The notes: generated by a model from the letters alone, not told the origin. DNA of 64,000 nt from an uncultured Candidatus Saccharibacteria bacterium (GCA_964440545.1 CAYTSO010000002.1:8636-72635); one strand, 5' to 3'; numbered from the stretch's first letter, positions 2,563-64,000 are shown. Made by a program: numbers and translations.

Positions 2563-2636
2563 ATCAATATTCATATATGGAATTATAACTCCATATTGAG
2601 TATAAACGCAATAGTTGATAACATGTTAATATAAAT

Positions 2637-2843
2637 ATGGCTCAAATTTCCAAAAAATTAGGAGATAACATTAAGCGGATACGGCTTCGCCGTAAAATGT
2701 CGCAAGGCGACATTTGCCGAGCAATTGATATGGATAGAAGCTATATGAGCGCAATTGAAAGTGGTAAAAAGAATGTAACCATTGCCGTTGTAGAAAAACT
2801 TGCTCGTGCGCTTAATGTTTCAGTTGATGAGTTATTGAAATAA
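2637..2843 (+). CDS. XRE-family helix-turn-helix transcriptional regulator (68 aa)
   Basis: LGDNIKRIRLRRKMSQGDICRAIDMDRSYMSAIESGKKNVTIAVVEKLARALNVSVDELL is a classic Cro/C1-type HTH. Confidence 0.8.
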   Translation: MAQISKKLGDNIKRIRLRRKMSQGDICRAIDMDRSYMSAIESGKKNVTIAVVEKLARALNVSVDELLK

Positions 2844-2847
2844 TTTT

Positions 2848-3633
2848 ATGAAACCACATTTACTATTAGTACATTCATTTCCCACAAATAGTGTTTTACT
2901 TCATGGGTTAGAAGAATTTCTTTCCGATTTTTTTATAGTACATTTTATTGACCTTCCAGGTTTTCATAAAAATAATCCACCTTTTACTGGTGAGATAACT
3001 TTAGAAAGATTTTCAAATTATTTTGATAAAAAAATCGCGGGGTTAGATGTGGACGAGTATATTGTTGGAGGGGTATCGTTCGGTTTTCTGGTTGTTAATA
3101 ACGCGAAATTAGATAAGAGATGTAAAGCCATATTAGCCATGGAGCCGTTTGTGAATACGAAATGTTTGAATACTTCTTTTCTAAAACAAAGAGGTTATGT
3201 TGTTATGGCAATATTATTAAAACTTATACATTTTTTTCATATCGAAAAACAAATATGGAAATCAAAATGGTTTAATTGGGTTTTACAAAAAGAAGCGGAT
3301 TATCCAAAAGAGAGAGTGGATACAATAATTCAACACATAGATTCTCGAACATTTTTCTCCGTAACAAGTTTATTATTGAATTACAACAAGAATCCAAATT
3401 TTCACGAACTTCCATATTTTTTAATTGGAAACTTTGAGGATAAAACTATCAATTTTAACTCTGTTGTAGAAGTCTTTAAAAAAAATTTACGAAAACTGCA
3501 TATTTTTTCCGTGCCGATTGATCATTACCCAAAAGACTTAACAAAAGAATATTTCAAAGAAAGAATACCAAATGAAAACATACAAAGTATGATTGAATCA
3601 ATAACAAACAATGATTATCAATTAATTAAATAA
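2848..3633 (+). CDS. alpha/beta-hydrolase fold protein (putative esterase/lipase)
   Basis: N-terminal LLLVHSFPTNSVLLHG and the nucleophile elbow GVSFG (GxSxG). Function otherwise unknown. Confidence 0.5.
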   Translation: MKPHLLLVHSFPTNSVLLHGLEEFLSDFFIVHFIDLPGFHKNNPPFTGEITLERFSNYFDKKIAGLDVDEYIVGGVSFGFLVVNNAKLDKRCKAILAMEPFVNTKCLNTSFLKQRGYVVMAILLKLIHFFHIEKQIWKSKWFNWVLQKEADYPKERVDTIIQHIDSRTFFSVTSLLLNYNKNPNFHELPYFLIGNFEDKTINFNSVVEVFKKNLRKLHIFSVPIDHYPKDLTKEYFKERIPNENIQSMIESITNNDYQLIK

Positions 3634-3641
3634 AATATTAT

Positions 3642-4025
3642 ATGGAAAACGAAATTTTAATATTTATCATTTCATTTATTATCGGTTTGACATGGAATAG
3701 ATTTCTTTTCATTGTTGTCCCTGATTATTTCAAAAAACCTTTTGTCCGTTCTGTTATTAAATTACGATGGCATCATTTGCACATGGGACTTGTTTTGATT
3801 ACAATCGGCACAATATTTTTTTTACTGTCGCCCGGAAATATGTTTGTAAATATTTTGCTAGGGGTCGGGCTTGGATTAGCGATTGATCTTTTTATTCCTT
3901 CCATGCAATTGGAAACGGATAGAAATAAAGAATTGGTTGTATATCGTAGTTCATTAATACCTACTTTGTTGCTCGGAGCATTAATCGTGGTTATAATTGT
4001 TGTTTTATCAATTTTTAATAAATAG
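3642..4025 (+). CDS. small hydrophobic membrane protein (3-4 TM), hypothetical
   Basis: Hydrophobic segments such as ILIFIISFIIGLTW, LVLITIGTIFFLL and LLLGALIVVIIVVL. No recognisable motif. Confidence 0.45.
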   Translation: MENEILIFIISFIIGLTWNRFLFIVVPDYFKKPFVRSVIKLRWHHLHMGLVLITIGTIFFLLSPGNMFVNILLGVGLGLAIDLFIPSMQLETDRNKELVVYRSSLIPTLLLGALIVVIIVVLSIFNK

Positions 4026-4031
4026 AAATGA

Positions 4032-4229
4032 TGGCGAAAAAATAATTTGGCGAATCCGAAACCCGCCCGCAGGAGGGGTCTGGGGAGGAATGCGGGCGGA
4101 AAAATCAGCCGAGGTTTTGCGAATCCGTATCCCCAGAAAATTGTTTCGCAAAACCGAGTCCGCATTTTTCAGATTTCCTCGTCGGGATTCATTTCAAAAA
4201 AGGTTCGAATTTTGTACAATGAATACCGC
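4032..4229. repeat. IR-B right arm (inverted copy of 2365-2562)
   Basis: Perfect reverse-complement match. The ORFs 2220-2567(-) and 3997-4275(+) encode identical peptides, which confirms the inverted duplication. Confidence 0.9.
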
Positions 4230-4258
4230 CAAATATGATATAATACCCAAGCAAATTT

Positions 4259-24865: not shown

Positions 24866-25591
24866 ATGATTATGCGTTTCCATATCATCACAATTTTCCC
24901 GGAGATTTTTGATTCATATTTAAATGAATCTATTGTCGGGCGGGCAATTAAGAATAAAAAAATTTCAATAAAATTTTATAATCCACGAGATTTTATAAAG
25001 GGGGATAAGAGCAATTATAAGCCCGTGGATTACAAACCCTATGGTGGAGGCCCAGGAATGGTAATGCGAGCGGAGCCAATGATTAAAGCGATAGAGAAAG
25101 CAGTTCTCGCTGCTCAGAAATTTTCTTCAGGTCCTCGGTTCTCCTCGCGATTACGCTCGGCCAGACCATTCAGAAAAATTCCGAGCAACTCGATTAAAGT
25201 AATTCTCTTTTCTCCTTCCGGTAAAAAATTTGAGACAGCCTACGCCAAAAAATCGGTAAAAAAATACACAGACATTATTTTAATTTCCGGCAGATATGAA
25301 GGAATAGATGCTAGGGTGCAGAAAATATTTAAAGCAGAAGAGATCTCAGTAGGGGATTATGTGCTGACCGGAGGCGAACTCCCGGCGATGGTTCTAATAG
25401 ATTCTATCTCTCGACAAATTCCCGGAGTTTTGGGTAATTACGAATCTCTAGAAGAAGAACGAATTTCTTCAAGTGAGGTTTATACCCGCCCAGAAGTCTT
25501 GGAATATAAGAATAAAAAATACAAAGTTCCGAAAGTTCTCCTTTCCGGTAATCACAAAAAAATAGAGGAGTGGAGAAAAAATAAAAAATAG
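24866..25591 (+). CDS. trmD: tRNA (guanine37-N1)-methyltransferase. It contains a ~44-nt GC-rich in-frame insert at 25128-25171.
   Basis: Motifs MRFHIITIFPE, YGGGPGMVM and SGRYEGIDARV. Confidence 0.9.
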   Translation: MIMRFHIITIFPEIFDSYLNESIVGRAIKNKKISIKFYNPRDFIKGDKSNYKPVDYKPYGGGPGMVMRAEPMIKAIEKAVLAAQKFSSGPRFSSRLRSARPFRKIPSNSIKVILFSPSGKKFETAYAKKSVKKYTDIILISGRYEGIDARVQKIFKAEEISVGDYVLTGGELPAMVLIDSISRQIPGVLGNYESLEEERISSSEVYTRPEVLEYKNKKYKVPKVLLSGNHKKIEEWRKNKK

Positions 25592-46634: not shown

Positions 46635-47947
46635 TGAAATTTAAAATACAGAAAAAGCTTAAAAATAGCTTAGGAAGAGTTGGTGTTTTAGAAACCAACC
46701 ATGGAGTTATAGAGACCCCAGCTTTTGTGGCAGTGGGGACGAAAGCGACGATTAAATCCTTAAATCCTGAACAGGTGCGTGAGGCTGGTACGCAAATAGT
46801 GCTTGGAAATACTTATCATTTATATTTACAACCAGGCGACGAAGTTGTTCGAGACGCAGGTGGAATCGGAAAATTCATGAACTGGAAGGGGCCAACCATG
46901 ACGGACTCCGGTGGTTTCCAGGTTTTTTCTTTAGGTGTGGCCTACGGAAAAGATATTTCTAAAATCACTAAAATTACAGATCCATCACTTTTAATTCCAG
47001 AACGTTTTGATGATAGTGATGCGCCGAGATTAGCAAAAATCGGAGCGGATGGTGTTTCTTTTAAGTCCCATCTAGACGGTTCCATTCATTACATTACTCC
47101 AGAGAAATCAATTCAAATTCAACATAATCTTGGGGCGGATATAATTTTTGCTTTTGACGAATGTACTAGCCCGGCGGAAGACTTGCGTTATCAGGAAGAG
47201 GCGCTAGAACGGACTCATCGTTGGGCGGAGAGGAGTTTGAGAGAGCATCAAAAGCTGGAAAATCAAAAACAAGTTCGTTCTCAGGTCCTCGGCTCTCCTT
47301 CGCCTTCGGCTCGGCCAGACCATTCGCCCGAACATGTTTTTGATTTTCCTCAAGCACTTTTTGGTATCGTGCAAGGTGGGCGAGAAGAATCATTGCGAAA
47401 AAAATCTGCTAAAATTATTTCAGAAATGCGAGTCTTCTCTCCTTTGGGGAGGGCGGAGGGAGGGGTTGGTTTTGATGGTTTTGGTATTGGTGGTAGTTTT
47501 GCCAAGGAAGATATGTCTTCTGCGGTGAGGTGGGTGAATGAAATATTGCCCGAAGAAAAACCCAGGCACCTATTGGGTATAGGGGAGCCAGAGGATTTGT
47601 TTATGGGCATAGAGAACGGCGTAGATCTTTTTGATTGTGTTCTGCCCACTCGTTTAGGCAGAAACGGGACAATTTATACTAGAAAGGGAAAAATTATTAT
47701 TACTAACGCAAAATTCAGAAACGATTTTGCTCCCATCGAAAAGGATTGTCAGTGCTACACCTGTCAGCATTACACCAAGGCTTATATCGCGCACCTTTTC
47801 CACGGGAAAGAGATGCTTGCCGGAACCCTATCCTCTTTGCATAATTTGTATTTTATTGTTAATCTAGTGGGGAGGATTCGACGGTCAATTTTAGATGATA
47901 ATTTTTTTGAGTTTAAAAAAGAATTTTTAAGCGAATATCTTAAATAG
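46634..47947 (+). CDS. tgt: queuine tRNA-ribosyltransferase with a ~25-aa GC-rich insert around 47270-47340
   Basis: Motifs ETPAFVAVGTKATIKSL, LGNTYHLY and the C-terminal zinc motif CQCYTCQHYTKAYIAHL. Confidence 0.9.
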   Translation: MKFKIQKKLKNSLGRVGVLETNHGVIETPAFVAVGTKATIKSLNPEQVREAGTQIVLGNTYHLYLQPGDEVVRDAGGIGKFMNWKGPTMTDSGGFQVFSLGVAYGKDISKITKITDPSLLIPERFDDSDAPRLAKIGADGVSFKSHLDGSIHYITPEKSIQIQHNLGADIIFAFDECTSPAEDLRYQEEALERTHRWAERSLREHQKLENQKQVRSQVLGSPSPSARPDHSPEHVFDFPQALFGIVQGGREESLRKKSAKIISEMRVFSPLGRAEGGVGFDGFGIGGSFAKEDMSSAVRWVNEILPEEKPRHLLGIGEPEDLFMGIENGVDLFDCVLPTRLGRNGTIYTRKGKIIITNAKFRNDFAPIEKDCQCYTCQHYTKAYIAHLFHGKEMLAGTLSSLHNLYFIVNLVGRIRRSILDDNFFEFKKEFLSEYLK

Positions 47948-50055: not shown

Positions 50056-50398
50056 CAGGATCTCCTGTTGGATAGCTACTCCCCGATTTTGTTCGGGGGG
50101 AGGAAAGTCCGAACACACAGTCCTATTTATAGGATTAAACGTAGCGGGTAATACCCGTCGCCCGTGAGGGTAGGGTTGCGAACAGTGACGATGTCGATTT
50201 TGTTTGGTGCTTGCACTGAGCAGGGTCGAAGTGAAACGGCAAAATACCTACGCGTGTGCAAGATCGTGCCCTTCCGTAGCGGAGGGAGAATCGCTTGAGT
50301 CTGCAAGTAATTGCAGGCCTAGACAAATTGCTATCCTTCCTGACTTATGTTGGGGAGCACAGAATTCGGCTTATAGACAGGAGGTCACTAAATGAAAA
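50056..50398 (+). ncRNA. rnpB: RNase P RNA (bacterial type)
   Basis: Conserved GGAAAGTCCG (50099-50110) and ACAGAATTCGGCTTAT (matching the ACAGAAyyCGGCUUA consensus). The P1 helix GATCTCCTG/CAGGAGGTC closes the ends. A TATAAT box sits at 50046-50051. Confidence 0.8.
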
Positions 50399-51209: not shown

Positions 51210-51283
51210 TGGTGGACCTAGCGAGAATCGAACTCGCGCTTCGACAATGCGAATGTCGCGTAATACCACTTTACTATAGGCCC
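51210..51283 (-). tRNA. tRNA-Ala(CGC), CCA-encoded
   Basis: The reverse complement GGGCCTA...TAGGTCCACCA has the G3:U70 pair, anticodon stem CGACA/TGTCG, loop TTCGCAT (CGC) and T-loop TTCGATT. Confidence 0.75.
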
Positions 51284-51290
51284 TTTGTTA

Positions 51291-51366
51291 TGGTGGACCC
51301 AAGGAGACTCGAACTCCTTACCTCCTCATTGCAAATGAGGCGCTCTACCAGATGAGCTATGGGCCC
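51291..51366 (-). tRNA. tRNA-Ala(UGC), CCA-encoded
   Basis: The reverse complement GGGCCCATAGCTCATCTGGTAGAGCGCCTCATTTGCAATGAGG... has G3:U70 and anticodon loop TTTGCAA (TGC). Confidence 0.85.
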
Positions 51367-51369
51367 AGA

Positions 51370-51440
51370 TATTTATTTTTCAACACGAACCTTTGCCCTT
51401 CTGTTGCCTTCACGAGACGCTACAGATGAGCTATGGGCCC
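51370..51440 (-). pseudogene. tRNA-Ala remnant: the 5' 18 nt is identical to tRNA-Ala(UGC), followed by a degenerate body
   Basis: GGGCCCATAGCTCATCTG matches the tRNA 5' end, then the sequence diverges (a GGTTCG-like T-loop remnant, no cloverleaf). Confidence 0.4.
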
Positions 51441-51577
51441 AAACAATAAAATTATTCTATCTTATTTTGTTGATAATGCAAATTTTATTATTGTTTTTTC
51501 TCCAGTTTTTGCTAATATAATAGAAGTTCATTCATTAATTAAATACATTCCGGAGTAGTTTAAATACTTTGGAAAAT

Positions 51578-51649
51578 TCCGGGGTAGCTCAGCGGTAGAG
51601 CGGTCGCCTGTTAAGCGATTGGTCGTAGGTTCGATCCCTACCCCCGGAG
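51578..51649 (+). tRNA. tRNA-Asn(GUU)
   Basis: Acceptor TCCGGGG/CCCCGGA, D-arm GCTC-AGCGGTAGA-GC, anticodon stem GTCGC/GCGAT with loop CTGTTAA (GTT), T-arm GTAGG-TTCGATC-CCTAC. A U1 start, as in E. coli tRNA-Asn. Confidence 0.8.
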
Positions 51650-51703
51650 CTAGTGAACATTGTGCACTTTGTATACTTTTAAAAAAGGTGTAATATTTAC
51701 ATT

Positions 51704-52559: not shown

Positions 52560-53753
52560 ATGAAAAAAAACACATTGTTTTTGCTCACTGGAGCAATCGT
52601 TTTTACATTATTAGTAAACGTGATTGATGTAAACTTTGCTTTGGCTTATTATGATTCTGGCTGTGGTCCAAATGGACCTTTCAGTGCCACTACTGGAAAA
52701 CCTTGCGACACCAGTTCTGTTATTGTATGTCCGGCAGGTCACTTGTATAGCGCTTTTACCGGTCAACGCTGTAATTCATGGCAAAATGCGACCTCTGGTA
52801 CAGCTACTAGTCAATTTCAAATTGGCTCAAGGGGGGAAAGCGTAAAGGCATTTCAACAAACGTTGGTTAACGCTGGTTATTCCTTAAAAGTTGATGGAAT
52901 CTATGGTCCGATTACTGACCGCGCCGCCAAAAGTTATTATGCCGGTCTAGCAGTCTCTTTAGCCCAGGCGGATGGTTCTTCTTCTGTTTTGCCAGCTTCA
53001 GTTGCGACCCAAAATCAAATTGTCACAGAAACTTCTGCTTCCACTACCGATACCACTATTTCAGCGACTGTTCCTTCTGTGGACGTTCCTGCTACAACAC
53101 CTGTTGTTCCGCCGGTTACCACAACCCCAAGTGAACTCACTTTTTCAGTTTCTGGTCCAAGATACCTTATTGCCAACCAAGAAGGAGTTTGGGTAGCCTC
53201 AGTAGGCAATAAAGGGCAAGGAACTCTTTCCTATTCAGTTAATTGGGGAGATGGAAACACCTCCTCAAGCGTACCCCAGTTTTTAGGTGTAGTTAATCCT
53301 CCAATTTTTACTCACTCTTATATCCTGAGAGGAGCAACTTATAATCCCGTGTTTACAGTTATTAGTAGTGATGGCCGCAGGGCAAGCACTAGTTTGAGTG
53401 TGACAATAACAGGCACCGATGTTGGTAGGTTAAATATTCAACCAGGCAAAAATGTGATTAGCGCAGGGGGGTCTGTTTCCTTGCAGGCAATGTATGATGG
53501 ATGCACGAGTACCGACTTATCACTTTGTCCTGGGCCAGGGGCGTCCATTAAGGCAGTTAAAGCGATCTGGTCTTCAAGTAACCCGGAAATTGGCACAGTG
53601 GGGTATAAAAGTATTTGTCTTCCAAATACTATTTGTTCTGGAGAGCTTACAGCTGTGGCAAATGCTATTTCTAAAGGAATGACAATAATTATCGCAACGT
53701 ATCAATCTCCATTAGGTCCAGTAACTGCTTGGGCTCCAGTCACCGTGAAATAA
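52560..53753 (+). CDS. secreted protein with a peptidoglycan-binding domain (PG_binding_1-like) and a PKD-like Ig domain
   Basis: Signal peptide. GSRGESVKAFQQTLVNAGYSLKVDGIYGPITDRAAK is a PG-binding motif. NWGDGNTSS is a PKD-type motif. A Thr/Val/Pro-rich linker separates them. Confidence 0.6.
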   Translation: MKKNTLFLLTGAIVFTLLVNVIDVNFALAYYDSGCGPNGPFSATTGKPCDTSSVIVCPAGHLYSAFTGQRCNSWQNATSGTATSQFQIGSRGESVKAFQQTLVNAGYSLKVDGIYGPITDRAAKSYYAGLAVSLAQADGSSSVLPASVATQNQIVTETSASTTDTTISATVPSVDVPATTPVVPPVTTTPSELTFSVSGPRYLIANQEGVWVASVGNKGQGTLSYSVNWGDGNTSSSVPQFLGVVNPPIFTHSYILRGATYNPVFTVISSDGRRASTSLSVTITGTDVGRLNIQPGKNVISAGGSVSLQAMYDGCTSTDLSLCPGPGASIKAVKAIWSSSNPEIGTVGYKSICLPNTICSGELTAVANAISKGMTIIIATYQSPLGPVTAWAPVTVK

Positions 53754-53774
53754 ATTAATATACATTCTAACGAA

Positions 53775-53805
53775 AAATAGCCCCAAATCGGCTATTTTTC
53801 TTTAA
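53775..53805 (+). terminator. rho-independent terminator
   Basis: Hairpin AATAGCC-CCAAATC-GGCTATT followed by TTTCTTT. Confidence 0.5.
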
Positions 53806-53889
53806 ATTTTCTGTTTACTTTTTGCTTATGTTGATGGAGTTTTTTACTCGTTAGGGGATTATGATATAATTTTTTTATCTATTGAATAT

Positions 53890-54093
53890 ATGAATTATAA
53901 TATTTCAAAACACTTATCTTCAAACCATTGTGGTACTTGTCACGGAGAAGGGGATGGGTTCCGATGTCCAAAGTGCGGTCTAGTGGCAAAGTTTTTTGAT
54001 CCTTCTCATTTTCGCGAGTGCAAAGAAAAATCCATGCTAGAAGTAAGATGTAAAAAGTGTGGAGAAGCAGAAAGCAATTGCAAGTGCCCCTAG
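53890..54093 (+). CDS. small Cys-rich zinc-ribbon-like protein (67 aa)
   Basis: Paired CxxC motifs: CGTCH, CPKCG, CKKCG, CKC. Confidence 0.4.
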   Translation: MNYNISKHLSSNHCGTCHGEGDGFRCPKCGLVAKFFDPSHFRECKEKSMLEVRCKKCGEAESNCKCP

Positions 54094-54095
54094 CT

Positions 54096-54386
54096 TTATT
54101 CCTCACTTAGAAAATTTCTCCAATGAAAATCTTCTTGATTATTTTCTGCGGAGTGTTTTTTCAGTATTTCGATAGCTTTTTCTCCAGAAATATGCCCGAG
54201 TATTACATTTGTTTTGGGATCAACTACTGGGAAACCGTCAGTCGGGAAGTGCATGTCTACCTCCTTCCCATCTTTCCAGACGATGGAGACAACGTAGTAG
54301 TTTTTACCATTTTCATATTTAGTTGATTTATAATTCTGTATTCCGCGTGTTTTCGGTTGTTCAGTTTCTGGTTTTTCGAAAGTCAT
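54096..54386 (-). CDS. hypothetical protein (96 aa)
   Basis: ORF only. Confidence 0.35.
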   Translation of the reverse strand: MTFEKPETEQPKTRGIQNYKSTKYENGKNYYVVSIVWKDGKEVDMHFPTDGFPVVDPKTNVILGHISGEKAIEILKKHSAENNQEDFHWRNFLSEE

Positions 54387-54566
54387 ATTGGTATGTTAGC
54401 ACCTAAAATTGGATGAGTAAACAAGTTAAATAATTGAGAAATTGACAGGATTTATTTCCTTGACAAATGCAGTATTTTATGGTATCTTTATTACGGTTGC
54501 ACATTGAAGTTACGTTAACTTAACCATAAGCGAACTACTGCAAAAACATAGAAAGGGAGGTAGGAT

Positions 54567-55433
54567 ATGATAACCAAACCGTTGCTGCCGGAAGAGTCGC
54601 TGTCGCTGAAAAACGACGGAAGACTCGAGCTATTTTTCATCGGGACCGGGTCGGCCTTTGCCGAGACTCTTCATCAGACGAATTTTCTAATCGTGAAAGG
54701 CGATGTCCATATTCTGGTGGATTTCGGTATGACTGGCCCTGCGGCTCTGCGCCAGTCGGCTCGGCTCAAAGTGACCGACATCGAAGCATTGCTCCCGACT
54801 CACTCTCATGCCGACCACATTGGCGGCATTGAGGGGATCGCTCTTCTCAACAGGTATGTTGGGATTCCCTTCATGAAGAAGGAAAAGGTGAAGATGATCA
54901 TCACGGAGGATTACCAACGTATCCTTTGGGATCGGTCTCTTCGAGGGGGCCTCGAACATAACGAAGAAGAAGTCACGGAGCACAAGTTGCTTTCCTTCGG
55001 CGACTATTTCAAGATTTTTCGTCCGAGATGGAAGCAGCAGATGCCGAGGGAGATTCACGAGATCGACTTCGGCGGATTGCACATCGAAATGTTTCGCACG
55101 AAACACACCCCGGACTCCGCTCCCAGCTGGCAGGAATCTTTTGTCAGCTACGGACTTTTCATCGACGGACACGTTTTTGTGTCTGTCGATACCAGGTTCG
55201 ATCGGGAGCTTGTCGAGTTGTATGCTTCACGGTCATCAGTCATGTTCCATGACGTGCAGTTTTTCCCGGGCGGGGTGCACGCCTCGCTCGCGGATCTCAA
55301 AACACTTCCGTCCGAAGTCAAACAGAAGATGCTCCTCATGCATTATGGGGACAACTTCAGAGATCAGGACATCTCTGACTTCTCAGGTTGGACTCAGCCG
55401 GCGGTCCGGTATATCATGGACCTCTGGTCTTAG
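54567..55433 (+). CDS. metallo-beta-lactamase-fold hydrolase; GC-rich (~52%) relative to the genome
   Basis: HSHADHIGG is the HxHxDH motif. An SD AGGGAGG precedes the ATG. Confidence 0.7.
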   Translation: MITKPLLPEESLSLKNDGRLELFFIGTGSAFAETLHQTNFLIVKGDVHILVDFGMTGPAALRQSARLKVTDIEALLPTHSHADHIGGIEGIALLNRYVGIPFMKKEKVKMIITEDYQRILWDRSLRGGLEHNEEEVTEHKLLSFGDYFKIFRPRWKQQMPREIHEIDFGGLHIEMFRTKHTPDSAPSWQESFVSYGLFIDGHVFVSVDTRFDRELVELYASRSSVMFHDVQFFPGGVHASLADLKTLPSEVKQKMLLMHYGDNFRDQDISDFSGWTQPAVRYIMDLWS

Positions 55434-55533
55434 GTTCCAATAATCAAGCCCCACAAAGAAAAGTCGTATGGCTTCCTTTGTGGGGCTTTTCTTTTTTCTA
55501 GCAGAAAAATGATGGGGTTGCTATAATAGAATA

Positions 55534-56040
55534 ATGTTTCGCAAACTTTCTTCGGTGTCCTATTTTAGAAATTTCATTTTTGGAGTAGAGGATGGTGTGG
55601 TGTCTACGGTTGGTTTGCTGTCTGGGATAGCAGTAGCTAATATTCCCCGAACAACTATCCTTATTACCGGAGTTGTTTTAATTTTTGTTGAAGCTGTTTC
55701 TATGGCAGCCGGGAGTTTTTTGTCTGAGTCTTCTGTAGAAGAATACAATAATCACCGCGAAAAAATTTCAAAAAGCACTTTTATTTCTGGCGCTATAATG
55801 TTTTTTTCTTATTTCATTGCTGGCTCTGTTGTTTTATCTCCTTATATAATTTTTTCTGTTTCTGGGGCACTAAAAATATCTATTCTTGTTTCGATTTTAT
55901 TGCTTTTTGTTCTTGGGGTTACTGGCGCGAAAATATCAAATATTAATATTTTTAAAAGCGGGTTAAGAATGGTTGTTGTGGGTGGCATAGCCATAATTGT
56001 TGGACTTCTGGCAGGGAGCTGGATTTCTAGCATACAATAA
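55534..56040 (+). CDS. VIT1/CCC1-family (DUF125) membrane protein, short form
   Basis: GVEDGVVSTVGLLSGIA resembles the VIT-family N-terminal motif. 4-5 TM helices. Confidence 0.5.
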   Translation: MFRKLSSVSYFRNFIFGVEDGVVSTVGLLSGIAVANIPRTTILITGVVLIFVEAVSMAAGSFLSESSVEEYNNHREKISKSTFISGAIMFFSYFIAGSVVLSPYIIFSVSGALKISILVSILLLFVLGVTGAKISNINIFKSGLRMVVVGGIAIIVGLLAGSWISSIQ

Positions 56041-56119
56041 ATAACTTTTTCCAAGAAATTTGAGTATCCTTAGGCCTATGCTATAATCAAGATATTACAA
56101 GTCTAATATCTTATTCTGT

Positions 56120-57022
56120 ATGATTACAAAAAAATTTTTATGGTTAGCTGCTTTTGTTTTTCTTGTGATTGGTTTTTTTGCCGGTCAATATTTTGGTGTT
56201 ATCCCGGTATTTGCCAGTGACAATGACCATGATGGCATGATTGACTCAAAAGACACCGATGATGACAATGACAATATTCCTGACGTAGATGATAAGTATC
56301 CATTTGATTACGATAATGATGGGATAGGTGACAAGGATGATACCGAAGACAATAGTGCCGATGAAAAAGAATTGTTGGAGGATGAAGGTGATGAAACAAG
56401 TAAAGAGGAAATTAAAGATGAAGTAAAAAAAGATGATACCGGCGGTCCCGTCTCCTCCATCACTGTTTCCGGAACTGGCAGTGCGGTAAGCTGGAAAGTG
56501 GACGGATACTCAAAAAGTGGATTTAAAATTGTTTGGTCAAAAAACAGCAAACCAACCTACCCAACCAGAGAAGGTGACAAGTATATTTACTTGTCCGATC
56601 CAAGTAGTCGAAGTACAACCCTGGATGCTTTTAGTGGATCAGGCACTTATTATGTAAGGGTTTGTGAATATCTTGGTGGCGCTTGTGGAATCTATTCGAA
56701 CCAGATAGAGGTTGGGCTAACTGGAAATGATACTAAACCAACATCTCCCGTTTCCTCCATCACTGTTTCCGGAACTGGCAGTGCGGTAAGCTGGAAAGTG
56801 GACGGATACTCAAAAAGTGGATTTAAAATTGTTTGGTCAAAAAACAGCAAACCAACCTACCCAACCAGAGAAGGTGACAAGTATATTTACTTGTCCGATC
56901 CAAGTAGTCGAAGTACAACCCTGGATGCTTTTAGTGGATCAGGCACTTATTATGTAAGGGTTTGTGAATATCTTGGTGGCGCTTGTGGAATCTATTCGAA
57001 CCAGATAGAGGTTGGGCTTTAA
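56120..57022 (+). CDS. membrane-anchored surface protein: Asp-rich Ca-binding (thrombospondin-3-like) repeats followed by two identical 91-aa beta-domains
   Basis: DNDHDGMIDSKDTDDDNDNIPDVDDKYPFDYDNDGIGDKDD, then two copies of the domain beginning PVSSITVSGTGSAVSWKVDGY. Confidence 0.6.
   Translation: MITKKFLWLAAFVFLVIGFFAGQYFGVIPVFASDNDHDGMIDSKDTDDDNDNIPDVDDKYPFDYDNDGIGDKDDTEDNSADEKELLEDEGDETSKEEIKDEVKKDDTGGPVSSITVSGTGSAVSWKVDGYSKSGFKIVWSKNSKPTYPTREGDKYIYLSDPSSRSTTLDAFSGSGTYYVRVCEYLGGACGIYSNQIEVGLTGNDTKPTSPVSSITVSGTGSAVSWKVDGYSKSGFKIVWSKNSKPTYPTREGDKYIYLSDPSSRSTTLDAFSGSGTYYVRVCEYLGGACGIYSNQIEVGL
56447..57018 (+). repeat. near-perfect tandem direct repeat, 2 units, period 300 bp, 1 mismatch over ~272 bp
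   Basis: 56447-56718 versus 56747-57018. The only mismatch is at 56452/56752. Confidence 0.85.
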
Positions 57023-57042
57023 AAAGATACCAAAATTAATTT

Positions 57043-57537
57043 ATGGAAAGAAAATACATAATTATCTCAGCAGTAGTTCTGGCGGTAATCGCAATTACGG
57101 TTGCTATTCTTCGGTCGCCGGAAGATGAATGGTTGTGTAAAGATGGTGTCTGGATAAAACATGGCAATCCAGCTGGAGAACAGCCAATTACAGGATGTGG
57201 TAGCACAGATTCAATCAACAATGGTATAGCTTGTACGGAAGAGGCCTTGATTTGTCCCGACGGTTCGGCGGTAGGGCGTACTGGCCCAAATTGTGAGTTT
57301 GCTCCTTGTCCGAAAATAAATAGTATACTCTCCCCGGAGGAAGCAAGAGTAATTGCAGAAGAGTCGTGCATTAAGGGAGGAGAAGCACTAGCAAATGGAA
57401 TTTATAATGAAAGTTCAAAAACCTGGTGGTATGAAGCCAATTTAAATTCTGTGCGGGAAGGGTGTGTTCCTGCTTGCGTGGTAGATGATGAAGCAAAGAC
57501 AGCTGGAATTAATTGGCGTTGCGTGGGTTTGAAATAA
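57043..57537 (+). CDS. membrane-anchored Cys-rich hypothetical secreted protein
   Basis: N-terminal TM segment and ~12 Cys residues. Confidence 0.4.
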   Translation: MERKYIIISAVVLAVIAITVAILRSPEDEWLCKDGVWIKHGNPAGEQPITGCGSTDSINNGIACTEEALICPDGSAVGRTGPNCEFAPCPKINSILSPEEARVIAEESCIKGGEALANGIYNESSKTWWYEANLNSVREGCVPACVVDDEAKTAGINWRCVGLK

Positions 57538-57581
57538 GACAAAAATAATTATTAATTAAAAATTATAAAAATATTTAGAAT

Positions 57582-58115
57582 ATGGATAAATTAAAGTTTG
57601 CGCTACTCTCAATAATTGTCTTAACCATTTTAGGTCTTCTTGGTTATTGGGCTGTTTCTACAATACAAACAGGGACTGAATATCAAGCAGTTCAGGAATT
57701 AAAAGATCTTCGGGCAGAAAATGAAAGTCTTAAAATAGAGGTAGCAAGTCTTGAAGAAGAGGTTCGCACACTTGAATCCCAAATCCCACAGGAAACAACG
57801 GAGGAAGTAGAAGTTCCAACTGAAACAACTAAGCCAACGACTACTTATAAAAACCAGACTCTTATCGATGAATTGCAAAAGCTTGTAGACGGAAATATTT
57901 TAATGAAACTTGGTTCAAGTGGCACAAGGGTTGGAACAGTACAGAAGTTTTTGAACACTTACAACAATACTTCAGATAAAATAGACAATGATTACGGTCC
58001 GGGTACAGAAAAAGCGGTAAAAGATTTCCAAGAAGACCAGGGCTTGACTGCTGATGGCCAGGCGGGGAAAGGAACCTTTAGTAAAATGGTTGACTGGCTC
58101 AAGAAACAAGGATAA
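57582..58115 (+). CDS. membrane-anchored protein with a coiled coil and a C-terminal peptidoglycan-binding domain
   Basis: N-terminal TM segment, a heptad coiled coil, and GSSGTRVGTVQKFLNTYNN...DYGPGTEKAVKDFQEDQGLTADGQAGKGT (PG_binding_1-like). Confidence 0.55.
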   Translation: MDKLKFALLSIIVLTILGLLGYWAVSTIQTGTEYQAVQELKDLRAENESLKIEVASLEEEVRTLESQIPQETTEEVEVPTETTKPTTTYKNQTLIDELQKLVDGNILMKLGSSGTRVGTVQKFLNTYNNTSDKIDNDYGPGTEKAVKDFQEDQGLTADGQAGKGTFSKMVDWLKKQG

Positions 58116-58199
58116 ATTATTATAAGTAATTATTATTAGCCCCTACGTAATGTCGGGGCTCCGATTCAAAAAGCGTCGGAGTTAATTTTATAAAAAATT

Positions 58200-58553
58200 A
58201 TGGAAGAAAATAAAAATGTTGAGGTTGGAGAAAAAGGTAGTTCAGCAAGCAAGGCAGACAATAAAACTATCATGGGAGTGCTTGCATATATTGGCCCCCT
58301 AGTTATCGTCTCTTATCTAATGGCGAAGGACGATCCTTTTGTTAAGTTTCACATCAAGCAAGGGCTGATTTTGGTGGTGATTGAAATATTGATCTGGATT
58401 TTAGGTTCAATGTTTTGGCATTTTTGGGAGGTAATTCAACTCCTGAATCTTGCTGTTATTATTCTCTCAATTATTGGTATCGTGAATGTAGTGCAAAAAC
58501 AACAAAAAGAACTTCCTGTTGTTGGGCAGTTCTCAAAATATTTTACCTTTTAA
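58200..58553 (+). CDS. DUF4870-like small membrane protein
   Basis: MGVLAYIGPLVIVSYLMAKDDPFVKFHIKQGLIL pattern and 2-3 TM helices. Confidence 0.5.
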   Translation: MEENKNVEVGEKGSSASKADNKTIMGVLAYIGPLVIVSYLMAKDDPFVKFHIKQGLILVVIEILIWILGSMFWHFWEVIQLLNLAVIILSIIGIVNVVQKQQKELPVVGQFSKYFTF

Positions 58554-58561
58554 GGTTAGTT

Positions 58562-58590
58562 CTTATGTAAAAAAACCACCATTTGGTGGT
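58562..58590 (+). terminator. rho-independent terminator
   Basis: Hairpin AACCACC-ATTT-GGTGGTT followed by TTTTAATTTT. Confidence 0.6.
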
Positions 58591-58647
58591 TTTTTAATTT
58601 TGGGGTATATTGAAAATGAGTTTGCTATTTGACAAAAGGAGGCGCCA

Positions 58648-58953
58648 ATGCAATATATGCCGAATCCCCACATGGAAAGGGAATTTAATTGCCTCAATTG
58701 CAATCTGCTATATGAACATCACACGATCTGTGAGACATGTATATTCACTAGAAAAATCAACATCTGTGGGCAATTTTACCCCATCTCAAGTAGTGGGAAA
58801 GGAGGCGCGAATGCAGGGACGGAAAGCTTCTCTAGGAACAAGAAAGATTACAAAAAGTGCCGCCTGGTATTTTATAAGGAATGTTTTGTTAGGCAAAAGG
58901 GAGGAGGGAGAAGATGTCGAGATACGGGAGCGAGTGGAATTATCACCACTTAA
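58648..58953 (+). CDS. small Cys-rich protein. It overlaps the next gene and is possibly a frameshifted N-terminal part of an HNH-like protein.
   Basis: SD AAAGGAGGCGCC 3 nt before the ATG. Motifs CLNCN...CETC...C. A second SD+ATG copy (AAAGGAGGCGCG-AATG) at 58799-58813 lies in another frame. Confidence 0.35.
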   Translation: MQYMPNPHMEREFNCLNCNLLYEHHTICETCIFTRKINICGQFYPISSSGKGGANAGTESFSRNKKDYKKCRLVFYKECFVRQKGGGRRCRDTGASGIITT

Positions 58954-59288
58954 CGCCAAGATGTCGTGGGGGGAGGAAGGAGAAATCAAATCTCCTTCGC
59001 CTAAATAGGAGAAGGCACGAGTTTTGGCACTTTATCTTCGGCAACAGAACGTTGCCGGAGGTAATATGTCTCTTGTATCAACTAGTTAAGAAGTCAAGAC
59101 GGTGGTGGAGGCAGCTTTCTCCGCCTAAATCAAAACGTCGCAAGGAAAAAAGAAAGTGGGGGTTTTTTCAGCTGGTGACGAAGATCCATGACTACTGGTC
59201 CTTCGTCTTCGGCGACAGGACCATTGAGGAGGTGCTTAGCATTCTGGTGCGTCTCAGGAGGATAAAGATTAGTCAGGGAGCTCTTTGA
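58914..59288 (+). CDS. HNH-endonuclease-like protein with a tandemly duplicated ~35-aa module
   Basis: SD GGGAGGAGGGAG. YHHLTPRCRGGRKEKSNLLRL matches the HNH core (HH..P...GG...SNL..L). The repeats are HEFWHFIFGNRTLPEV and HDYWSFVFGDRTIEEV. Confidence 0.45.
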   Translation: MSRYGSEWNYHHLTPRCRGGRKEKSNLLRLNRRRHEFWHFIFGNRTLPEVICLLYQLVKKSRRWWRQLSPPKSKRRKEKRKWGFFQLVTKIHDYWSFVFGDRTIEEVLSILVRLRRIKISQGAL

Positions 59289-59330
59289 CACCCACCAAGG
59301 AGTTATAAGGAAGCAAAGAAGGGAGGAAAC

Positions 59331-59546
59331 ATGGAAAGTAAGTGTATAGGGTGTGACAAAAGCCTGGGGGGTGTCCAAAATGGACACACTGCAGGTGGCC
59401 TTTGCGAGGCCTGCTCCCAGAAGTATCTTGGGATGGCGGGGTTGAAGATGGCCCCGGAAGGACATTTTGAGATTAAAGAAAAGAAGACCTCAGGGGCGGC
59501 TGGAAGGTTTTTAAACTTCCTCCGAAACATAGTCGGCGGTCGCTGA
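59331..59546 (+). CDS. small zinc-ribbon protein (71 aa)
   Basis: SD GGGAGG. Motifs CIGCDK...CEAC. Followed by the terminator AGGGTGGC-TCTG-GCCACCCT plus a T-run (59566-59595). Confidence 0.45.
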   Translation: MESKCIGCDKSLGGVQNGHTAGGLCEACSQKYLGMAGLKMAPEGHFEIKEKKTSGAAGRFLNFLRNIVGGR

Positions 59547-59691
59547 CCAAAAAATATCAAATGTAAAGGGTGGCTCTGGCCACCCTTTTTCTTTTTCCCC
59601 TGTTTTACCATAAATTTGTTGACTTTGAAAATTTGTAGGATTATTGTTTGATTAATAAGTTGTTTTTTATTATTAATAATTTTTAAATAAT

Positions 59692-61296
59692 ATGAAAAGA
59701 CTTTTATCTATTGTATTTGTTTTAGTTTTTGTTTTATTTGGTTTAGCAGATAGTGCCAGGGCAAAGGTTCCTCCATTAGTAATTAATGAGATTGATTATG
59801 ACCAACCGAGCACAGACACCGCGGAATTTATTGAGTTGAAAAATGCTGGAGACGGAACAATTAACTTAGACACCTTTGAACTTCGTTTTATTAATGGTTC
59901 AGGGGGAGGAGCAGTGGTCTACAAAACTATTGATTTGCCCGATTTTGATTTAGGGTCTGGAGATCATTACGTTATTTGTGCTAATTCCGCTACGGTTGCT
60001 AACTGCGATTTAGATTCAAATCCTGACACAAATTTTATTCAAAACGGTGACCCAGATGCCATTGCTTTGTTTTCTGGGGAAACAATTATTGATACTGTGA
60101 GCTATGGAGGAGATGTTCCAGGGTATACCGAAGGATCTGGAACGATAACTGATGATGGTGGAGCTGGCCAGGACAACATGGGGATTTCTCGATACCTGGA
60201 CGGACAAGATACGGGTGATAACTCTGCCGATTTTGCTTATATGTGTATTACTCCCGGGGGTGAGAATACTTGTGATGCACCACCGGTTGATGCTGACAAT
60301 GACGGGGTTCCGGATTCAAGCGATAATTGTCCACTTGTGGCCAATGCAGATCAAGCAGATGCAGATGGCGATGGAATAGGGGATGCTTGCGATAATTGTG
60401 TGGATGTTGCCAACCCTGACCAAGCAGACGAAGACCAAAATGGGATAGGTGATGCTTGCGAGGTTCCAGTAGACACGACAGACCCTACAATTGTTTCGGC
60501 CATTAGTACAGACCCAAACACAGTTGAAGTATTATTTGATGAGGAATTGCAAAACAATCCACCAAGCTCAGACTTTTTTGATTTCAAGGCCCGTGTCGGT
60601 CATTATCCTCAAATAGACGATTTTGATGTATACAATAACAAGAGCGGAGAAGAAAGAGGCAGTCTCCTTTCTTATGGGATAGAGAGTGTTAGTTATGAAG
60701 ATAAAAAAGTAACAATTGTTCTTACAAATCCGATATTAAAAGGAGACAATCCCTGGTTGTATGTTTATCCAATAGAAAATAGTCTTGTTGATTTAGCCGG
60801 CAATTATTTTAATGGTGGAAATAGTTATAATATGGCAATTGAAGTTGAAGAAGAGGAAGAAAAATCTGACAGGCCGAGTGCCAGTGGTGGAAGATATCCT
60901 CGTTTTCCGGACCCAACAGAAATTCCTGGGTGTGGCCTAGAGACAACAGGTTTTAGCGCTATCACCGGAGAATCATGCGAAACAAATATTCCCCATGAAG
61001 AAGATCTGCTTGTTTCCCCAAATTCTCAAGAACAAGCTGGCCAGGTTCTGGGAGCAGAAAAATACGTTTTTACAATGTTTTTAAAAAGAGAACAGCCTCC
61101 GTATTCAAAAGGAATTCAGGCAAATGAAGTATTAGAATTGCAAAAATTCTTAAATAAAAATGGTTATGAAAGCGGTCCAGAGGATGGAAAATTTGGGCCG
61201 ATAACCGAAGGAGCGGTAATACGTTTTCAGTTGGCGAATGGTTTAGTGGGGGATGGAATTGTGGGTGAACTTACTCGTGCAGTGCTTAATAAATAA
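59692..61296 (+). CDS. secreted multidomain surface protein: lamin-tail domain (LTD), thrombospondin type-3 Ca-binding repeats and a C-terminal peptidoglycan-binding domain
   Basis: Signal peptide. LTD region [10 protein letters not shown]...FIELKN. TSP3 region [59 protein letters not shown]_binding_1 region [31 protein letters not shown]. Confidence 0.7.
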
Positions 61297-61330
61297 AAGA
61301 AAAAACGCCCCGACCTAGATCGGGGCGCGA
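61296..61330. terminator. bidirectional rho-independent terminator between convergent genes
   Basis: Hairpin GCCCCGA-CCTAGA-TCGGGGC flanked by A-runs and T-runs. Confidence 0.6.
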
Positions 61331-61347: not shown

Positions 61348-62583
61348 TTATTTACCGGGGATATCCTGTTCGGATACCCCGTTCTTCTCGCTCCACACGA
61401 GATAGTGGATTACCTCTCCCGGCAGGGGTGCCGGGGGGTCGTAGAACTGCGTGCCCGCGGAAGGGACAGTCGCGACCAGATTCCAGGGCCCGTCAGGAGT
61501 CAACGACCGGTAGACCAAGTATCCGTCCACAGGACCAATACCGCTGCCACACGGGACCTCAGCCGTCTGCTCTACCCAACTTCCCCCTCCCGTGTTCATC
61601 ATCAGGAGAGTCACGGGTGGCTTTTCCGTGCACACTGGTGTTAGAGGTGACGGAGAGCACGGTGTGGTCATCGTGTTCCCATAGAGGGGAACATTCTTGA
61701 CTTCTACAACGTGTTCCGTTCCGTTCACTAGACCGGTGATTTGGAGAGGAGATGTCGCATTCGGGACGATCACCCCGTTGTGCCACACTTCTGTGTGGTC
61801 CAAGCGAGGATCGTATTCACCCGGGCTCCAATTGATGTAGACGCTGGAGTTGTCAGCCCATCCCGATACCGACGGCGGATTTACATCCGCGTCCCAGTAT
61901 TCGAAGCGGTAGAGGTGGATTCCCTCTACGGCGACCGAGCTGGAACTTACGAAGTAAATCCGCAAAATCGCGGGTCCGGTTGTTGTGCACTGCCGGAGGT
62001 CCAGCGTAACCCAGGTCGTTGCCATTGACCCGGAGTACGCGGGGATACCGCGTAGTCCGGTCGGAGGTGCATCCAAACTGGTGGATGTGCTCATCGTGTA
62101 GTTGTACCCGGGGCTAAGCACTCCCCCGACCGACGTGACTTCACTCCAGCTGTCTCCTCCATTGAAAGAGACCTGGATGATGAAGCCGTCGTATCGAGGT
62201 TGCAATGCCCACGACATTTGGAAAAATGCCATGGACATCTCGCTCACTTCGAAGCTGTGACCGGAGCTCGAGCCGACCTGCAGAACGTTGTGAGACCTGA
62301 CGGGAGGATTTTGCAAATAGAACTTTCCCGTCCTGTTTTCTGAGTTCCAGACGGTAGTCCAGTCGTAGATGGTGTCCGTGTCGGACGACCATGTCTGGCA
62401 TGCCGTGTTGTTCGGGCTGGAGGAGGAGTTCTCCATCCAGCTGAAGTTGTCCTCGCAATTCGTGCTTGCGTCCGGGACGTCCGGTCTGTCCAGCGCGCAA
62501 AGGCCGACGCAGGCGAGAAGGATTGCCAAAACCACGACCAAATTATTCTTTTTCATCGGTTCCTCCGTTTTTTTATAGGACAT
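61348..62583 (-). CDS. GC-rich (~58%) secreted protein / putative lipoprotein with fibronectin-III-like and Ig-like beta domains
   Basis: Signal peptide with a lipobox-like LLAC. Composition differs sharply from the ~35% GC background. A promoter-like TTGACA...TAGATAAT lies in the upstream intergenic region. Confidence 0.6.
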   Translation of the reverse strand: MSYKKTEEPMKKNNLVVVLAILLACVGLCALDRPDVPDASTNCEDNFSWMENSSSSPNNTACQTWSSDTDTIYDWTTVWNSENRTGKFYLQNPPVRSHNVLQVGSSSGHSFEVSEMSMAFFQMSWALQPRYDGFIIQVSFNGGDSWSEVTSVGGVLSPGYNYTMSTSTSLDAPPTGLRGIPAYSGSMATTWVTLDLRQCTTTGPAILRIYFVSSSSVAVEGIHLYRFEYWDADVNPPSVSGWADNSSVYINWSPGEYDPRLDHTEVWHNGVIVPNATSPLQITGLVNGTEHVVEVKNVPLYGNTMTTPCSPSPLTPVCTEKPPVTLLMMNTGGGSWVEQTAEVPCGSGIGPVDGYLVYRSLTPDGPWNLVATVPSAGTQFYDPPAPLPGEVIHYLVWSEKNGVSEQDIPGK

Positions 62584-62942
62584 CTCTAATGGACACGCAC
62601 TGTGCGGTCTATAGGATGTCCTTTATTTTGAAGAACTATATTTTCAACGAAGCCTTAACGGACTTCGTGGCATTATTGTATTACAAAGCACAACAAATGT
62701 CAATACTAAAAAAATACAAATAATTTATTTATAAACATAAGGGCTTGACATTTTTTTGACAATAGTAGATAATGCAAGCTAGATAAGTTCTAAAGACAAA
62801 GCCATAAAAAACTAACAAATAGTGGCATAAAGTGTCTTTATTCTTTTGTTTATAAGTTTATTATTAAAGGTCAAAATTAATTATTAGTTAATACAATCCC
62901 GGCAGTAGAGCAGAGCTCACTACGGGACAAGAAAAAAATATA

Positions 62943-64000
62943 TGAAAAAGTTTAAAAATATATTTCGTGGTTTATTGGTCGTAGCGCTTGCTTGTGCAAG
63001 TATTTTGCTTCCTACTGGAGCAGTTTTTGCTGCCGACAATGAAAGCATTTCTTTGCCGGGTTTTGACGTTCGCGGAATGGTGAATGACGGAGCAGACATT
63101 TTTGCTTCTCCCTTCAACAGCCCCCCAATGGTTTTAACCGTTGACATACCTAGCGACAGTTTCGATGGTCACACAATTATGACCGGAGATGGTGTTTACG
63201 GTATGTTTTTTGCCGGTGATTATCTTTACGTCGCTGCCGGCCTAGGAGAGAGTTTGGACAAGAGTGCCCTCGTAGAAGAAAAGGGTGTTCTTCCAACCTT
63301 TATCAATTCTGGTGGATTACAGGTTTTTGATAGAAACATGGACAGTGTTTCTCCTTTCTATGGTTACCCGGATTACACTTATAGCAAGGTTGTTGTAAAT
63401 AGTGACGGAGTAGCTTTTGTGGCTTATTTAGATGAGTCCTGGAATCCATGGATGGAAGCAGTTTCCTATGCTGACCCTTCCAATCCAACTTCTCTTTCTG
63501 ACACAAATCTGCTTGCCTCTTCTGTTGTTGATATTGTAGATGCTTCTATTTCTGGAAATTATGCCTATGTGGCTATTGGTGAAGGTGAAGGAGGATCAGT
63601 AAATATTGTGGATATCTCTAATCCTGTCGAGGTTTCTGATTTTAGAGAAGGAGCTCCTTCTGGTATTTATGTGGTTGGAGTTTACCCAACCTCATCAGGT
63701 GTTACTTCTGTTACTGCCAACGGAACCATGATGTATGTCGGCCATGACAGCGAGGTAGACGTAGTGGACGTTTCTAATCCAGCTAGCCCGGTGTTTTTGT
63801 CAACCATTTCTACTGGCGCATTGGTAAATGACTTAGCGGTAGATGATAGTTATCTTTATGTTGCCAACGTAGATGGCTTAAAGATTTATTCTGCCTCAGC
63901 ATCAGTGCCTACATTTGTTGAAAGAGTTACTCCTGTCTTGGATACTCCGGTAGGAGAATTTCTTGCCCCCACAGAAGGTACAGCTGTATCTTTAGATGGA
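62943..64000 (+). CDS. secreted LVIVD-repeat (beta-propeller) protein. It is not in the supplied ORF track because no stop codon falls inside the window.
   Basis: Frame open from the ATG at 62943 to the window end. Signal peptide MKKFKNIFRGLLVVALACASILLPTGAVFA. Repeats YAYVAIGEGEGGSVNIVDISNP, MYVGHDSEVDVVDVSNP and LYVANVDGLKIYSAS. Confidence 0.65.

Follow-up and report, generated by a model that had tools for sequence, protein, structure and literature searches.

What is a dense group of secreted proteins with peptidoglycan-binding (PG-binding) domains doing in the chromosome of a bacterium of the Candidate Phyla Radiation (CPR)? The question is raised by a 64-kb stretch of DNA (the window) from an assembly labelled as an uncultured Candidatus Saccharibacteria bacterium (GCA_964440545.1, CAYTSO010000002.1:8636-72635), in which an initial annotation had flagged the interval 52560-61296, and the gene following it, as a possible locus for attachment to a host cell. 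In the interpretation favoured here, to which a probability of roughly 0.55 is assigned, the region is a loosely organised cell-envelope neighbourhood encoding wall-anchored display proteins, in which the PG-binding module would sit on the wall of the producer itself. The genes of the flagged region are lettered A to H in 5' to 3' window order:

52560-53753, + strand: gene A, 397 aa, signal peptide cleaved between ..FALA and YY (open reading frame and reading of the N-terminus)
56120-57022, + strand: gene B, 300 aa, N-terminal hydrophobic anchor or signal, Asp-rich DxDxDG region, two identical fn3-like repeats
57043-57537, + strand: gene C, 164 aa, N-terminal membrane anchor, 10 Cys
57582-58115, + strand: gene D, 177 aa, PG_binding_1 domain at 57918-58088
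58200-58553, + strand: gene E, 117 aa, three-helix membrane protein, DUF4870-like (Pfam 24.0 bits, cut-off 25)
59692-61296, + strand: gene F, 534 aa, signal peptide cleaved between ..SARA and K
61348-62556, - strand: gene G, 402 aa, signal peptide with a possible lipobox (LLAC)
62942-64000, + strand: gene H, cut by the window end with 352 aa visible, signal peptide cleaved between ..VFA and AD, LVIVD beta-propeller

The boundaries initially given for A, D and F proved correct, and the start of H moved by one base from 62943. Seven of the products (A, B, C, D, F, G and H) begin with a charged and then hydrophobic N-terminus; AxA-type cleavage sites are found in A, F and H, and B, C and D have the look of N-terminally anchored proteins, all as judged by a simple hydrophobicity and cleavage-motif heuristic applied to the N-termini. 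This agrees with their initial description as secreted, modular proteins, and export would take place via the Sec pathway. A motif search detected no LPXTG sortase motif in any of the seven, and F and H have no lipobox and no second anchor besides the cleavable signal peptide. Since the sole membrane link of F and H would be lost upon signal-peptide cleavage, with no other anchor left, their terminal cassette would be the retention device. The PG_binding_1 module in this cassette is predicted, from the architecture of the proteins, to hold them non-covalently on the producer's own peptidoglycan.

The design is laid out in full in F, which consists of a lamin-tail domain (LTD), three calcium-binding thrombospondin type 3 (TSP3) repeats, an Ig-like stalk, a Cys loop and a C-terminal anchor cassette that includes PG_binding_1 (cut-offs are Pfam gathering cut-offs in bits, here and elsewhere):

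59767-60108, + strand: LTD, aa 26-139, the outermost head (PF00932, 52.9 bits, cut-off 34.3)
60280-60486, + strand: three TSP3 repeats, aa 197-265 (TSP_3, PF02412, 39.1 bits in 3 stretches, cut-off 25)
60493-60891, + strand: stalk, aa 268-400, 58-59% identical to the proteins of related loci L002 and L005
61024-61293, + strand: anchor cassette, the C-terminal 90 residues (GQVLGAEK...LNK), aa 445-534
61120-61287, + strand: PG_binding_1 (PF01471, 64.3 bits, cut-off 23, full profile)

The initially reported union of LTD and TSP3 repeats in one gene is borne out, both domains passing their Pfam thresholds. The LTD is 55-61% identical to those of many bacteria, and the TSP3 block, with DxDxDG motifs at aa 200, 223 and 246, matches the cartilage oligomeric matrix protein COMP (3fby, E 4.5e-38) and thrombospondin-2 (E 2e-36). 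The stalk has no Pfam match and is common to the proteins encoded at the F position in relatives. The final 60 residues are matched by PG-binding domains from phiKZ gp144 and SleB, family hits ranging from E 2.4e-6 to 2e-3. Among the top 120 homologues of F, all three domains are listed only for the identical entry P0001 (P numbers denote homologous proteins); LTD-TSP3 heads are present in the further Paceibacterota proteins P0025, P0035 and P0061. A 95-nt tRNA-Cys called by ARAGORN at 59888-59982 (anticodon ACA) was rejected, as it lies inside the LTD coding sequence and has no Rfam support.

In both F and H, a 90-residue C-terminal cassette would stand behind an Ig-like stalk and leave an N-terminal head exposed, this head being the LTD on its three TSP3 repeats in F and the LVIVD propeller in H. 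The propeller announced by the initial annotation is confirmed by Pfam (PF08309, 40.0 bits in 2 stretches, cut-off 20.2). Orthologues of H in three related loci (L002, 642 aa; L088, 586 aa; L092, 725 aa) combine LVIVD, Bact_surface_Ig-like and PG_binding_1 domains.

The question of whose wall is held can be approached by comparing related loci (designated L002, L005, L088 and so on, and used for synteny). In L002 the order is D (59% identical), E (56%), the F position, two extra Ig/PG-binding genes, G (34%, on the opposite strand), H (34%), CAP and SIMPL. In L005 it is CdaA, C (75%), D (67%), E (63%), MltG and the F position, and in L088 the F position, G, H, CAP and SIMPL. Similarity between F and the proteins at its position begins at the stalk (aa 246-258 of F) and runs to the end with about 60% identity. 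The heads are LTD-TSP3 in the window, an unknown head plus Big_13 in L002 and L005, and a DUF11-like plus MBG_2 head in L088. The 90-residue cassette is 64-87% identical among F-position and H proteins from four lineages, versus 28-34% when compared with the PG-binding domain of D. A search with the C-terminal half of F recovered 52 further proteins with the same tail, bearing Big_2, HYR, MBG, Flg_new, Big_3 or Bact_surface_Ig-like heads. Comparison of the predicted proteins thus shows the F position to carry different N-terminal heads by lineage on the same stalk and anchor. Because the anchor is constant and the heads vary, the latter would be the ligand-binding, lineage-specific part, with a partner cell, a polymer or DNA as candidate ligands. 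Export signals, the lack of a covalent or lipid anchor in A, F and H, and a constant anchor with variable heads are features expected of the wall-anchored display class; binding of the anchor to the producer's own wall polymer, a further one, is predicted here. A diversity-generating retroelement acting on G or F was considered and rejected, as the window contains no template/variable repeat pair.

The same comparison bears on the proposal of the initial annotation, in which the PG-binding modules grip the peptidoglycan of another (host) bacterium and the region is an epibiotic attachment locus. Most CPR bacteria are episymbionts, Kuroda et al. (PMC10936435) have put forward PG-binding, Ig-like and PKD proteins as attachment factors, such proteins are enriched in the cluster, and the PG-binding domains of phage endolysins, including that of gp144 matched by F, do bind foreign walls. 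However, a conserved PG-binding cassette with varying heads is the reverse of what is expected from a host-specificity module, F and H would be left without a link to their producer once the signal peptide is cleaved, and the short tether of D cannot extend past the producer's own wall. Also, the documented hosts of Paceibacteria are methanogenic archaea (PMC10936435), and archaea are devoid of peptidoglycan (PMC5744192). Modules aimed at the wall of another cell are thus considered unlikely, and anchoring on the producer's own wall is preferred.

The third protein with this module, A, would follow a different design, in which the anchor lies near the N-terminus and PKD-like and Ig-like domains are distal. 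Two Cys-loop motifs precede a shortened PG-binding module, followed by a PKD-like domain and a C-terminal Ig-like domain:

52662-52772, + strand: Cys-loop motifs CGPNGPFSATTGKPC and CPAGHLYSAFTGQRC, directly upstream of the PG-binding module (regular-expression search)
52815-52964, + strand: shortened PG_binding_1-like module, aa 86-135
53100-53429, + strand: PKD-like beta-sandwich, aa 181-290

The shortened module matches the endolysin structures 7rum_A (E 3.6e-6) and 4xxt_A (E 2.9e-5) in the Protein Data Bank, and in homologues of A this place is taken by a PG-binding domain that is either complete or shortened to the same extent. Of the three genes initially credited with PG_binding_1, D (57.9 bits) and F are confirmed by Pfam; in A, whose own score is below threshold, the assignment has the support of these matches and homologues. 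The PKD assignment fared similarly. The segment itself scores 15.8 bits with PKD_4 (PF18911, aa 214-280), below the cut-off of 27, and homologues over this segment pass the PKD_4 or PKD thresholds (the latter PF00801, 23.5 bits), with 31.4 bits in P0192, 57.4 in P0211 and 36.5 in P0257. The fitting label is PKD-like, on the strength of homology and not of the segment's own score. A single-sequence AF2 model of A (pLDDT 33) was unusable and was discarded.

A search of 1.84 billion representatives (E<=1e-3) yielded an A family of 1539 representatives, with a plan in which the anchor lies near the N-terminus behind one or two Cys loops and is followed by PKD, TIG, Big_2 or dockerin modules. The 15-residue Cys-loop consensus, C-x2-3-G-x1-4-[FYLW][ST]-x2-[TNDS]G-x2-C, occurs in 74/149 A-family representatives at a median of 47 residues ahead of the DGxFG core and is covered by no Pfam family. 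A looser copy of this loop lies at aa 414-429 of F. The composition of A is host-like (third-position GC, GC3, 0.31). In the search for the source contig, A was located only on a 1.4-kb Logan contig, and an exact look-up of F gave no match.

Is the grouping of these genes more than accidental? All three PG-binding domains of the window are packed into 8.7 of its 64 kb, which from the window alone is marginally unusual (about 0.05). A background was drawn from 803 kb around D orthologues in 82 related loci, which contain 82 D-type PG-binding domains and about 11 others, about 7 of them outside the two syntenic loci (about 780 kb). For the flagged interval this gives about 0.08 expected non-D domains, and 2 are observed (Poisson P about 0.003), as counted with a home-made hidden Markov model that was built from these same families and that divergent domains may escape. 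The local enrichment of PG-binding domains is real, and the concentration of cell-surface proteins initially remarked upon stands.

These figures also bear on the possibility that the region is no functional unit, its PG-binding proteins being common in the lineage and chance neighbours in a variable part of the chromosome. Separate promoters and terminators, the interruption by an Apyc1-type hydrolase gene, the VIT1 transporter gene and a foreign cassette, the occurrence of D alone in most relatives and the marginal clustering within the window would all agree with it. Chance is nonetheless improbable given that the background density in the 803 kb of relatives is roughly tenfold lower, that the orders C-D-E-F and F-G-H recur in several diverged lineages, and that the divergent pairing of G with H is seen in seven lineages.

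Several observations weigh against a neighbourhood of display proteins on the producer's wall. The PG_binding_1 score of A is 22.5 bits (cut-off 23) and covers only profile positions 1-33 of 57, and the end of H lies beyond the window, so that its PG-binding cassette, which is probably present, is deduced from orthologues. The signal peptides were judged by the heuristic alone. The ligand of PG_binding_1 could be a polymer other than murein, or the wall of a partner. Synteny is confined to a few close lineages: of the D loci that extend 4 kb or more downstream, 41/42 lack E, F, G and H after D, 1/42 has E, and the F-type cassette is found in 0/42. Unrelated or foreign genes (the Apyc1-type hydrolase gene and VIT1, both between A and B, and the 1-kb cassette) are interspersed in the cluster. 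Also, promoter-like sites, which are consensus matches only, and terminator-like sites divide A, the hydrolase gene, the B-C-D-E run, the 1-kb cassette, F, G and H, and the region is on this reading a series of separate transcription units, not an operon:

53772-53800: terminator after A
about 58571-58595: terminator hairpin after E
59619-59647: promoter-like site of F
61305-61328: terminator of F
62703 to 62675, - strand: promoter-like site of G
62745-62773, + strand: promoter-like site of H, divergent from that of G across the AT-rich intergenic segment 62675-62773, each with 11/12 consensus positions

D is the most widespread component, with at least 172 relatives (47-61% identical) in groundwater and sediment metagenomes; the conserved envelope protein of relatives, which the initial annotation had set against an attachment role, is what D amounts to. 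It consists of an N-terminal transmembrane helix, a leucine-zipper coiled coil, a Pro/Thr linker and a C-terminal PG_binding_1 domain that covers the full profile. The distance of about 85 residues from the membrane to the PG-binding domain fits a membrane-to-wall tether, and D is read as a conserved tether of this kind, which probably joins the membrane to the wall and may take part in division or in wall growth. Residues 1-66 (57582-57780) score 18.2 bits with DivIC (PF04977, cut-off 28.9) and 17.7 bits with FtsL (TIGR02209, cut-off 42.45), both sub-threshold, and share with the bitopic divisome proteins FtsL and DivIC (FtsB) only the topology of a membrane helix plus leucine zipper. D may represent a bitopic protein of the divisome or wall-growth type to which a PG-binding domain has been fused.

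These features, together with the presence of MltG in the L005 locus and after D in five loci, and with the usual position of PG_binding_1 beside hydrolases (SleB, gp144, DD-carboxypeptidase), could point to a role in wall remodelling, in which the module directs lytic or recycling activities to murein and displays nothing. For the region as a whole this seems quite unlikely, as profile searches detected no catalytic domain in A, D, F, G or H and the partner domains fall without exception into the Ig-like, propeller, lectin-like and LTD types; for D alone, wall remodelling may apply.

Of the genes around D, C belongs to no known family, and its orthologues lie directly upstream of D (75% identical in L005, 56% in L076). 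E follows D in the closest relatives (orthologues 56% identical in L002 and 63% in L005). In B, DxDxDG motifs occur at aa 34 and 63, and the fn3-like pair (22.2 bits, cut-off 25) is encoded by a 300-nt tandem duplication of 1.9 copies that are 99-100% identical (56446-57018). A Logan assembly contains a 200-aa version of B with a single repeat copy, the difference being either copy-number variation or assembly collapse. A Cys-rich small protein of 67 aa, encoded at 53890-54093 (+ strand), has no family match and has 68-71% identical copies just upstream of D in L021 and L023.

G belongs to a seven-member family without a Pfam match, and an AF2 model built from the seven homologues (pLDDT 72) consists of a jelly-roll lectin/MAM-like domain plus fn3-like domains. 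Foldseek matches to the carbohydrate-binding accessory domains of Endo-D, to the Epf adhesin and to MAM-Ig-FN ectodomains indicate that the modelled protein resembles a lectin. Its homologues are found at the following positions, and in 7/7 lineages the gene is divergent to an LVIVD (H-type) gene:

L002, 7250-8437: homologue of G
L088, 8552-9724: homologue of G
L089, 1660-2847: homologue of G
L090, 2439-3662: homologue of G
L091, 1746-2903: homologue of G
L092, 2938-4161: homologue of G

The GC3 of G is 0.55-0.69 in the seven lineages (0.69 in the window) versus 0.18-0.35 in the adjacent H gene, C-ending and G-ending codons being both raised. Folding of the G mRNA reaches z values of -5 to -8 per 200-nt window relative to dinucleotide shuffles, and with permutation of synonymous codons the summed z is -2.4 to -9.4, as against -2.5 to +2.4 in eleven ordinary genes (F, H, H-type neighbours, A, B, gyrB, MreB, rpoC and TGT). 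The mRNA matches no Rfam family. A conserved RNA structure inside G is not claimed: the consensus fold of the codon alignment does well against column shuffles, yet many consensus pairs are broken in individual sequences and positional conservation of the helices is weak. Recent foreign origin was also rejected: the high GC is shared by seven positional homologues, and this speaks against acquisition in one recent event. A single transfer from a GC-rich donor explains neither the persistence of G across lineages nor its hairpin excess.

A more far-reaching and rather doubtful idea is that F-G-H forms a recognition cassette of a Paceibacteria clade, with head-swapping in F and H, G as a surface component and selection at the RNA level. 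If so, F and H would be wall-anchored binders and G a major, S-layer-like or partner-binding protein, whose hairpins and GC would be kept by RNA-level selection, for instance through an unusually long-lived transcript. This would amount to a gene-specific compositional regime maintained across seven diverged lineages with AT-rich, reduced genomes.

Besides G, the window has only two further GC islands, the Apyc1-type gene and the cassette at 58.8-59.6 kb. The former (54567-55433, + strand) belongs to the anti-Pycsar Apyc1 family of metallo-beta-lactamase-fold proteins (Pfam 121 bits, cut-off 50) and shares about 35% identity with its homologues in Bacillus phage SBSphiJ and in phage G. The gene is foreign in composition (GC 0.52, GC3 0.66 versus 0.31 in the host; folding z -4.6), is equipped with a promoter-like site and a terminator of its own, and is missing from the surroundings of D in relatives. 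The latter belongs to a GC-rich (0.47-0.51) insert of 1.1 kb (58554-59691) flanked by two terminator hairpins, with 3-4 small genes preceded by strong Shine-Dalgarno sites. These include genes for an HNH-like protein of 124 aa with an internal repeat (58914-59288), of which an identical copy lies on a 1.7-kb Logan contig, and for a zinc-ribbon protein of 71 aa (59331-59546). The insert is found in none of the relatives compared; the corresponding site holds mltG in L005 and only 150 bp in L002. Its interpretation as a structured RNA or an mltG remnant was rejected, as Rfam offers nothing credible and the insert reads as small genes.

The wider window is ordinary chromosome of low GC (0.38), with rpoB/rpoC, gyrB, dnaG, rpoD, MreB/MreC, TGT and several aminoacyl-tRNA synthetases. 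The flagged-region proteins are singletons of one 127,613-bp NCBI contig. Their nearest relatives come from metagenome bins labelled Candidatus Paceibacterota or Candidatus Nomurabacteria, and assignment of the organism to a Paceibacteria/Nomurabacteria-type CPR bacterium is supported by these closest relatives; the initial premise of a reduced-genome CPR organism is reasonable on the same grounds. The organism encodes wall machinery (DD-carboxypeptidase, MreB, MreC) and two DsbA-like oxidoreductases, which suit Cys-rich secreted proteins and suggest that it can form disulfides. The proximity of tRNA genes, to which meaning had been attached, appears incidental. Other features of the window are as follows:

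51210-51650: tRNA genes
50060-50389: RNase P RNA
2362-2562 / 4032-4232: perfect inverted repeat of 201 nt
716-835 / 2249-2368: perfect inverted repeat of 120 nt
548-2227: large serine recombinase gene, surrounded by the inverted repeats
632-719: tRNA-Ser, adjoining the recombinase gene
25127-25171 / 47281-47325: GC-rich direct repeat of 45 nt, 82% identical, in two unrelated genes, one of which is TGT

The repeats and recombinase at 548-4232 may represent an element capable of inversion or integration, or may have arisen in assembly.

How do the proteins of the flagged region compare with known systems? In Gram-positive bacteria, families anchored non-covalently to the wall include the CWP proteins of Clostridioides difficile (CWB2 repeats) and the SLH-domain, LysM and GW proteins. 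They likewise combine a signal peptide, a constant terminal wall-binding module and a variable functional domain, with paralogues clustered in one region. They differ in the anchoring module, which here is the three-helix bundle of PG_binding_1, and have no sequence relationship to the present proteins, in which binding to the own wall is deduced. In characterised members such as gp144 and SleB, PG_binding_1 binds murein. The domain of F belongs to the same family as those of phiKZ gp144 (3bkh), SleB (4fet, 6tci) and the Streptomyces DD-carboxypeptidase (1lbu), with the E values given above; there it is fused to a catalytic domain, whereas here its partners are binding modules with no catalytic role or, in D, a membrane anchor. 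TSP3 repeats with the identical calcium-binding motif DxDxDGxxDxxDNCP occur in OmpA-family proteins (5wtl) and in animal thrombospondin and COMP. In the bacterial OmpA family they also lie beside a peptidoglycan-binding domain, but this is OmpA_C, whereas F has PG_binding_1 and no outer-membrane barrel. The extracellular nuclease ExeM of Shewanella has an N-terminal LTD right after the signal peptide, as does F (PMC6085458), yet F lacks a nuclease or other catalytic domain. Literature on CPR S-layers and on the LTD provided no direct precedent for the proteins described here.

The closest parallel is found in cultured Paceibacteria, whose most strongly expressed genes include those for large proteins that are exported through the Sec pathway and carry PG-binding, Ig-like and PKD domains (Kuroda et al., mBio 2024, PMC10936435). 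These bacteria also encode murein synthesis, and host attachment has been proposed for the proteins in question (PMC10936435). Those of Ca. Yanofskyibacterium, Minisyncoccus and Microsyncoccus come from the same bacterial class, sharing the domain vocabulary, the Sec signal and a large modular build. Compared by description, they differ in that the LTD-TSP3 head, the 90-residue cassette, the head swapping and the G-H pair are not described there. The concept is thus already described for Paceibacteria, and the detail added here is the anchor cassette, the exchange of heads at a fixed position and the tether D. The value of the locus is that of a well-characterised example rather than of a discovery, and host binding by these proteins is here only a hypothesis. 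In ultra-small CPR bacteria other than Saccharibacteria, the only components so far implicated in building the surface and holding on to partners are pili and a small number of expressed proteins with PG-binding domains. The locus offers a testable design, in which heads can be exchanged at one chromosomal position while the stalk and a conserved PG-binding tail of 90 residues stay in place, and a conserved membrane-to-wall tether in D. The anchor cassette could serve as a search handle for listing the surface repertoire of Paceibacteria genomes and for selecting heads to be assayed for binding.

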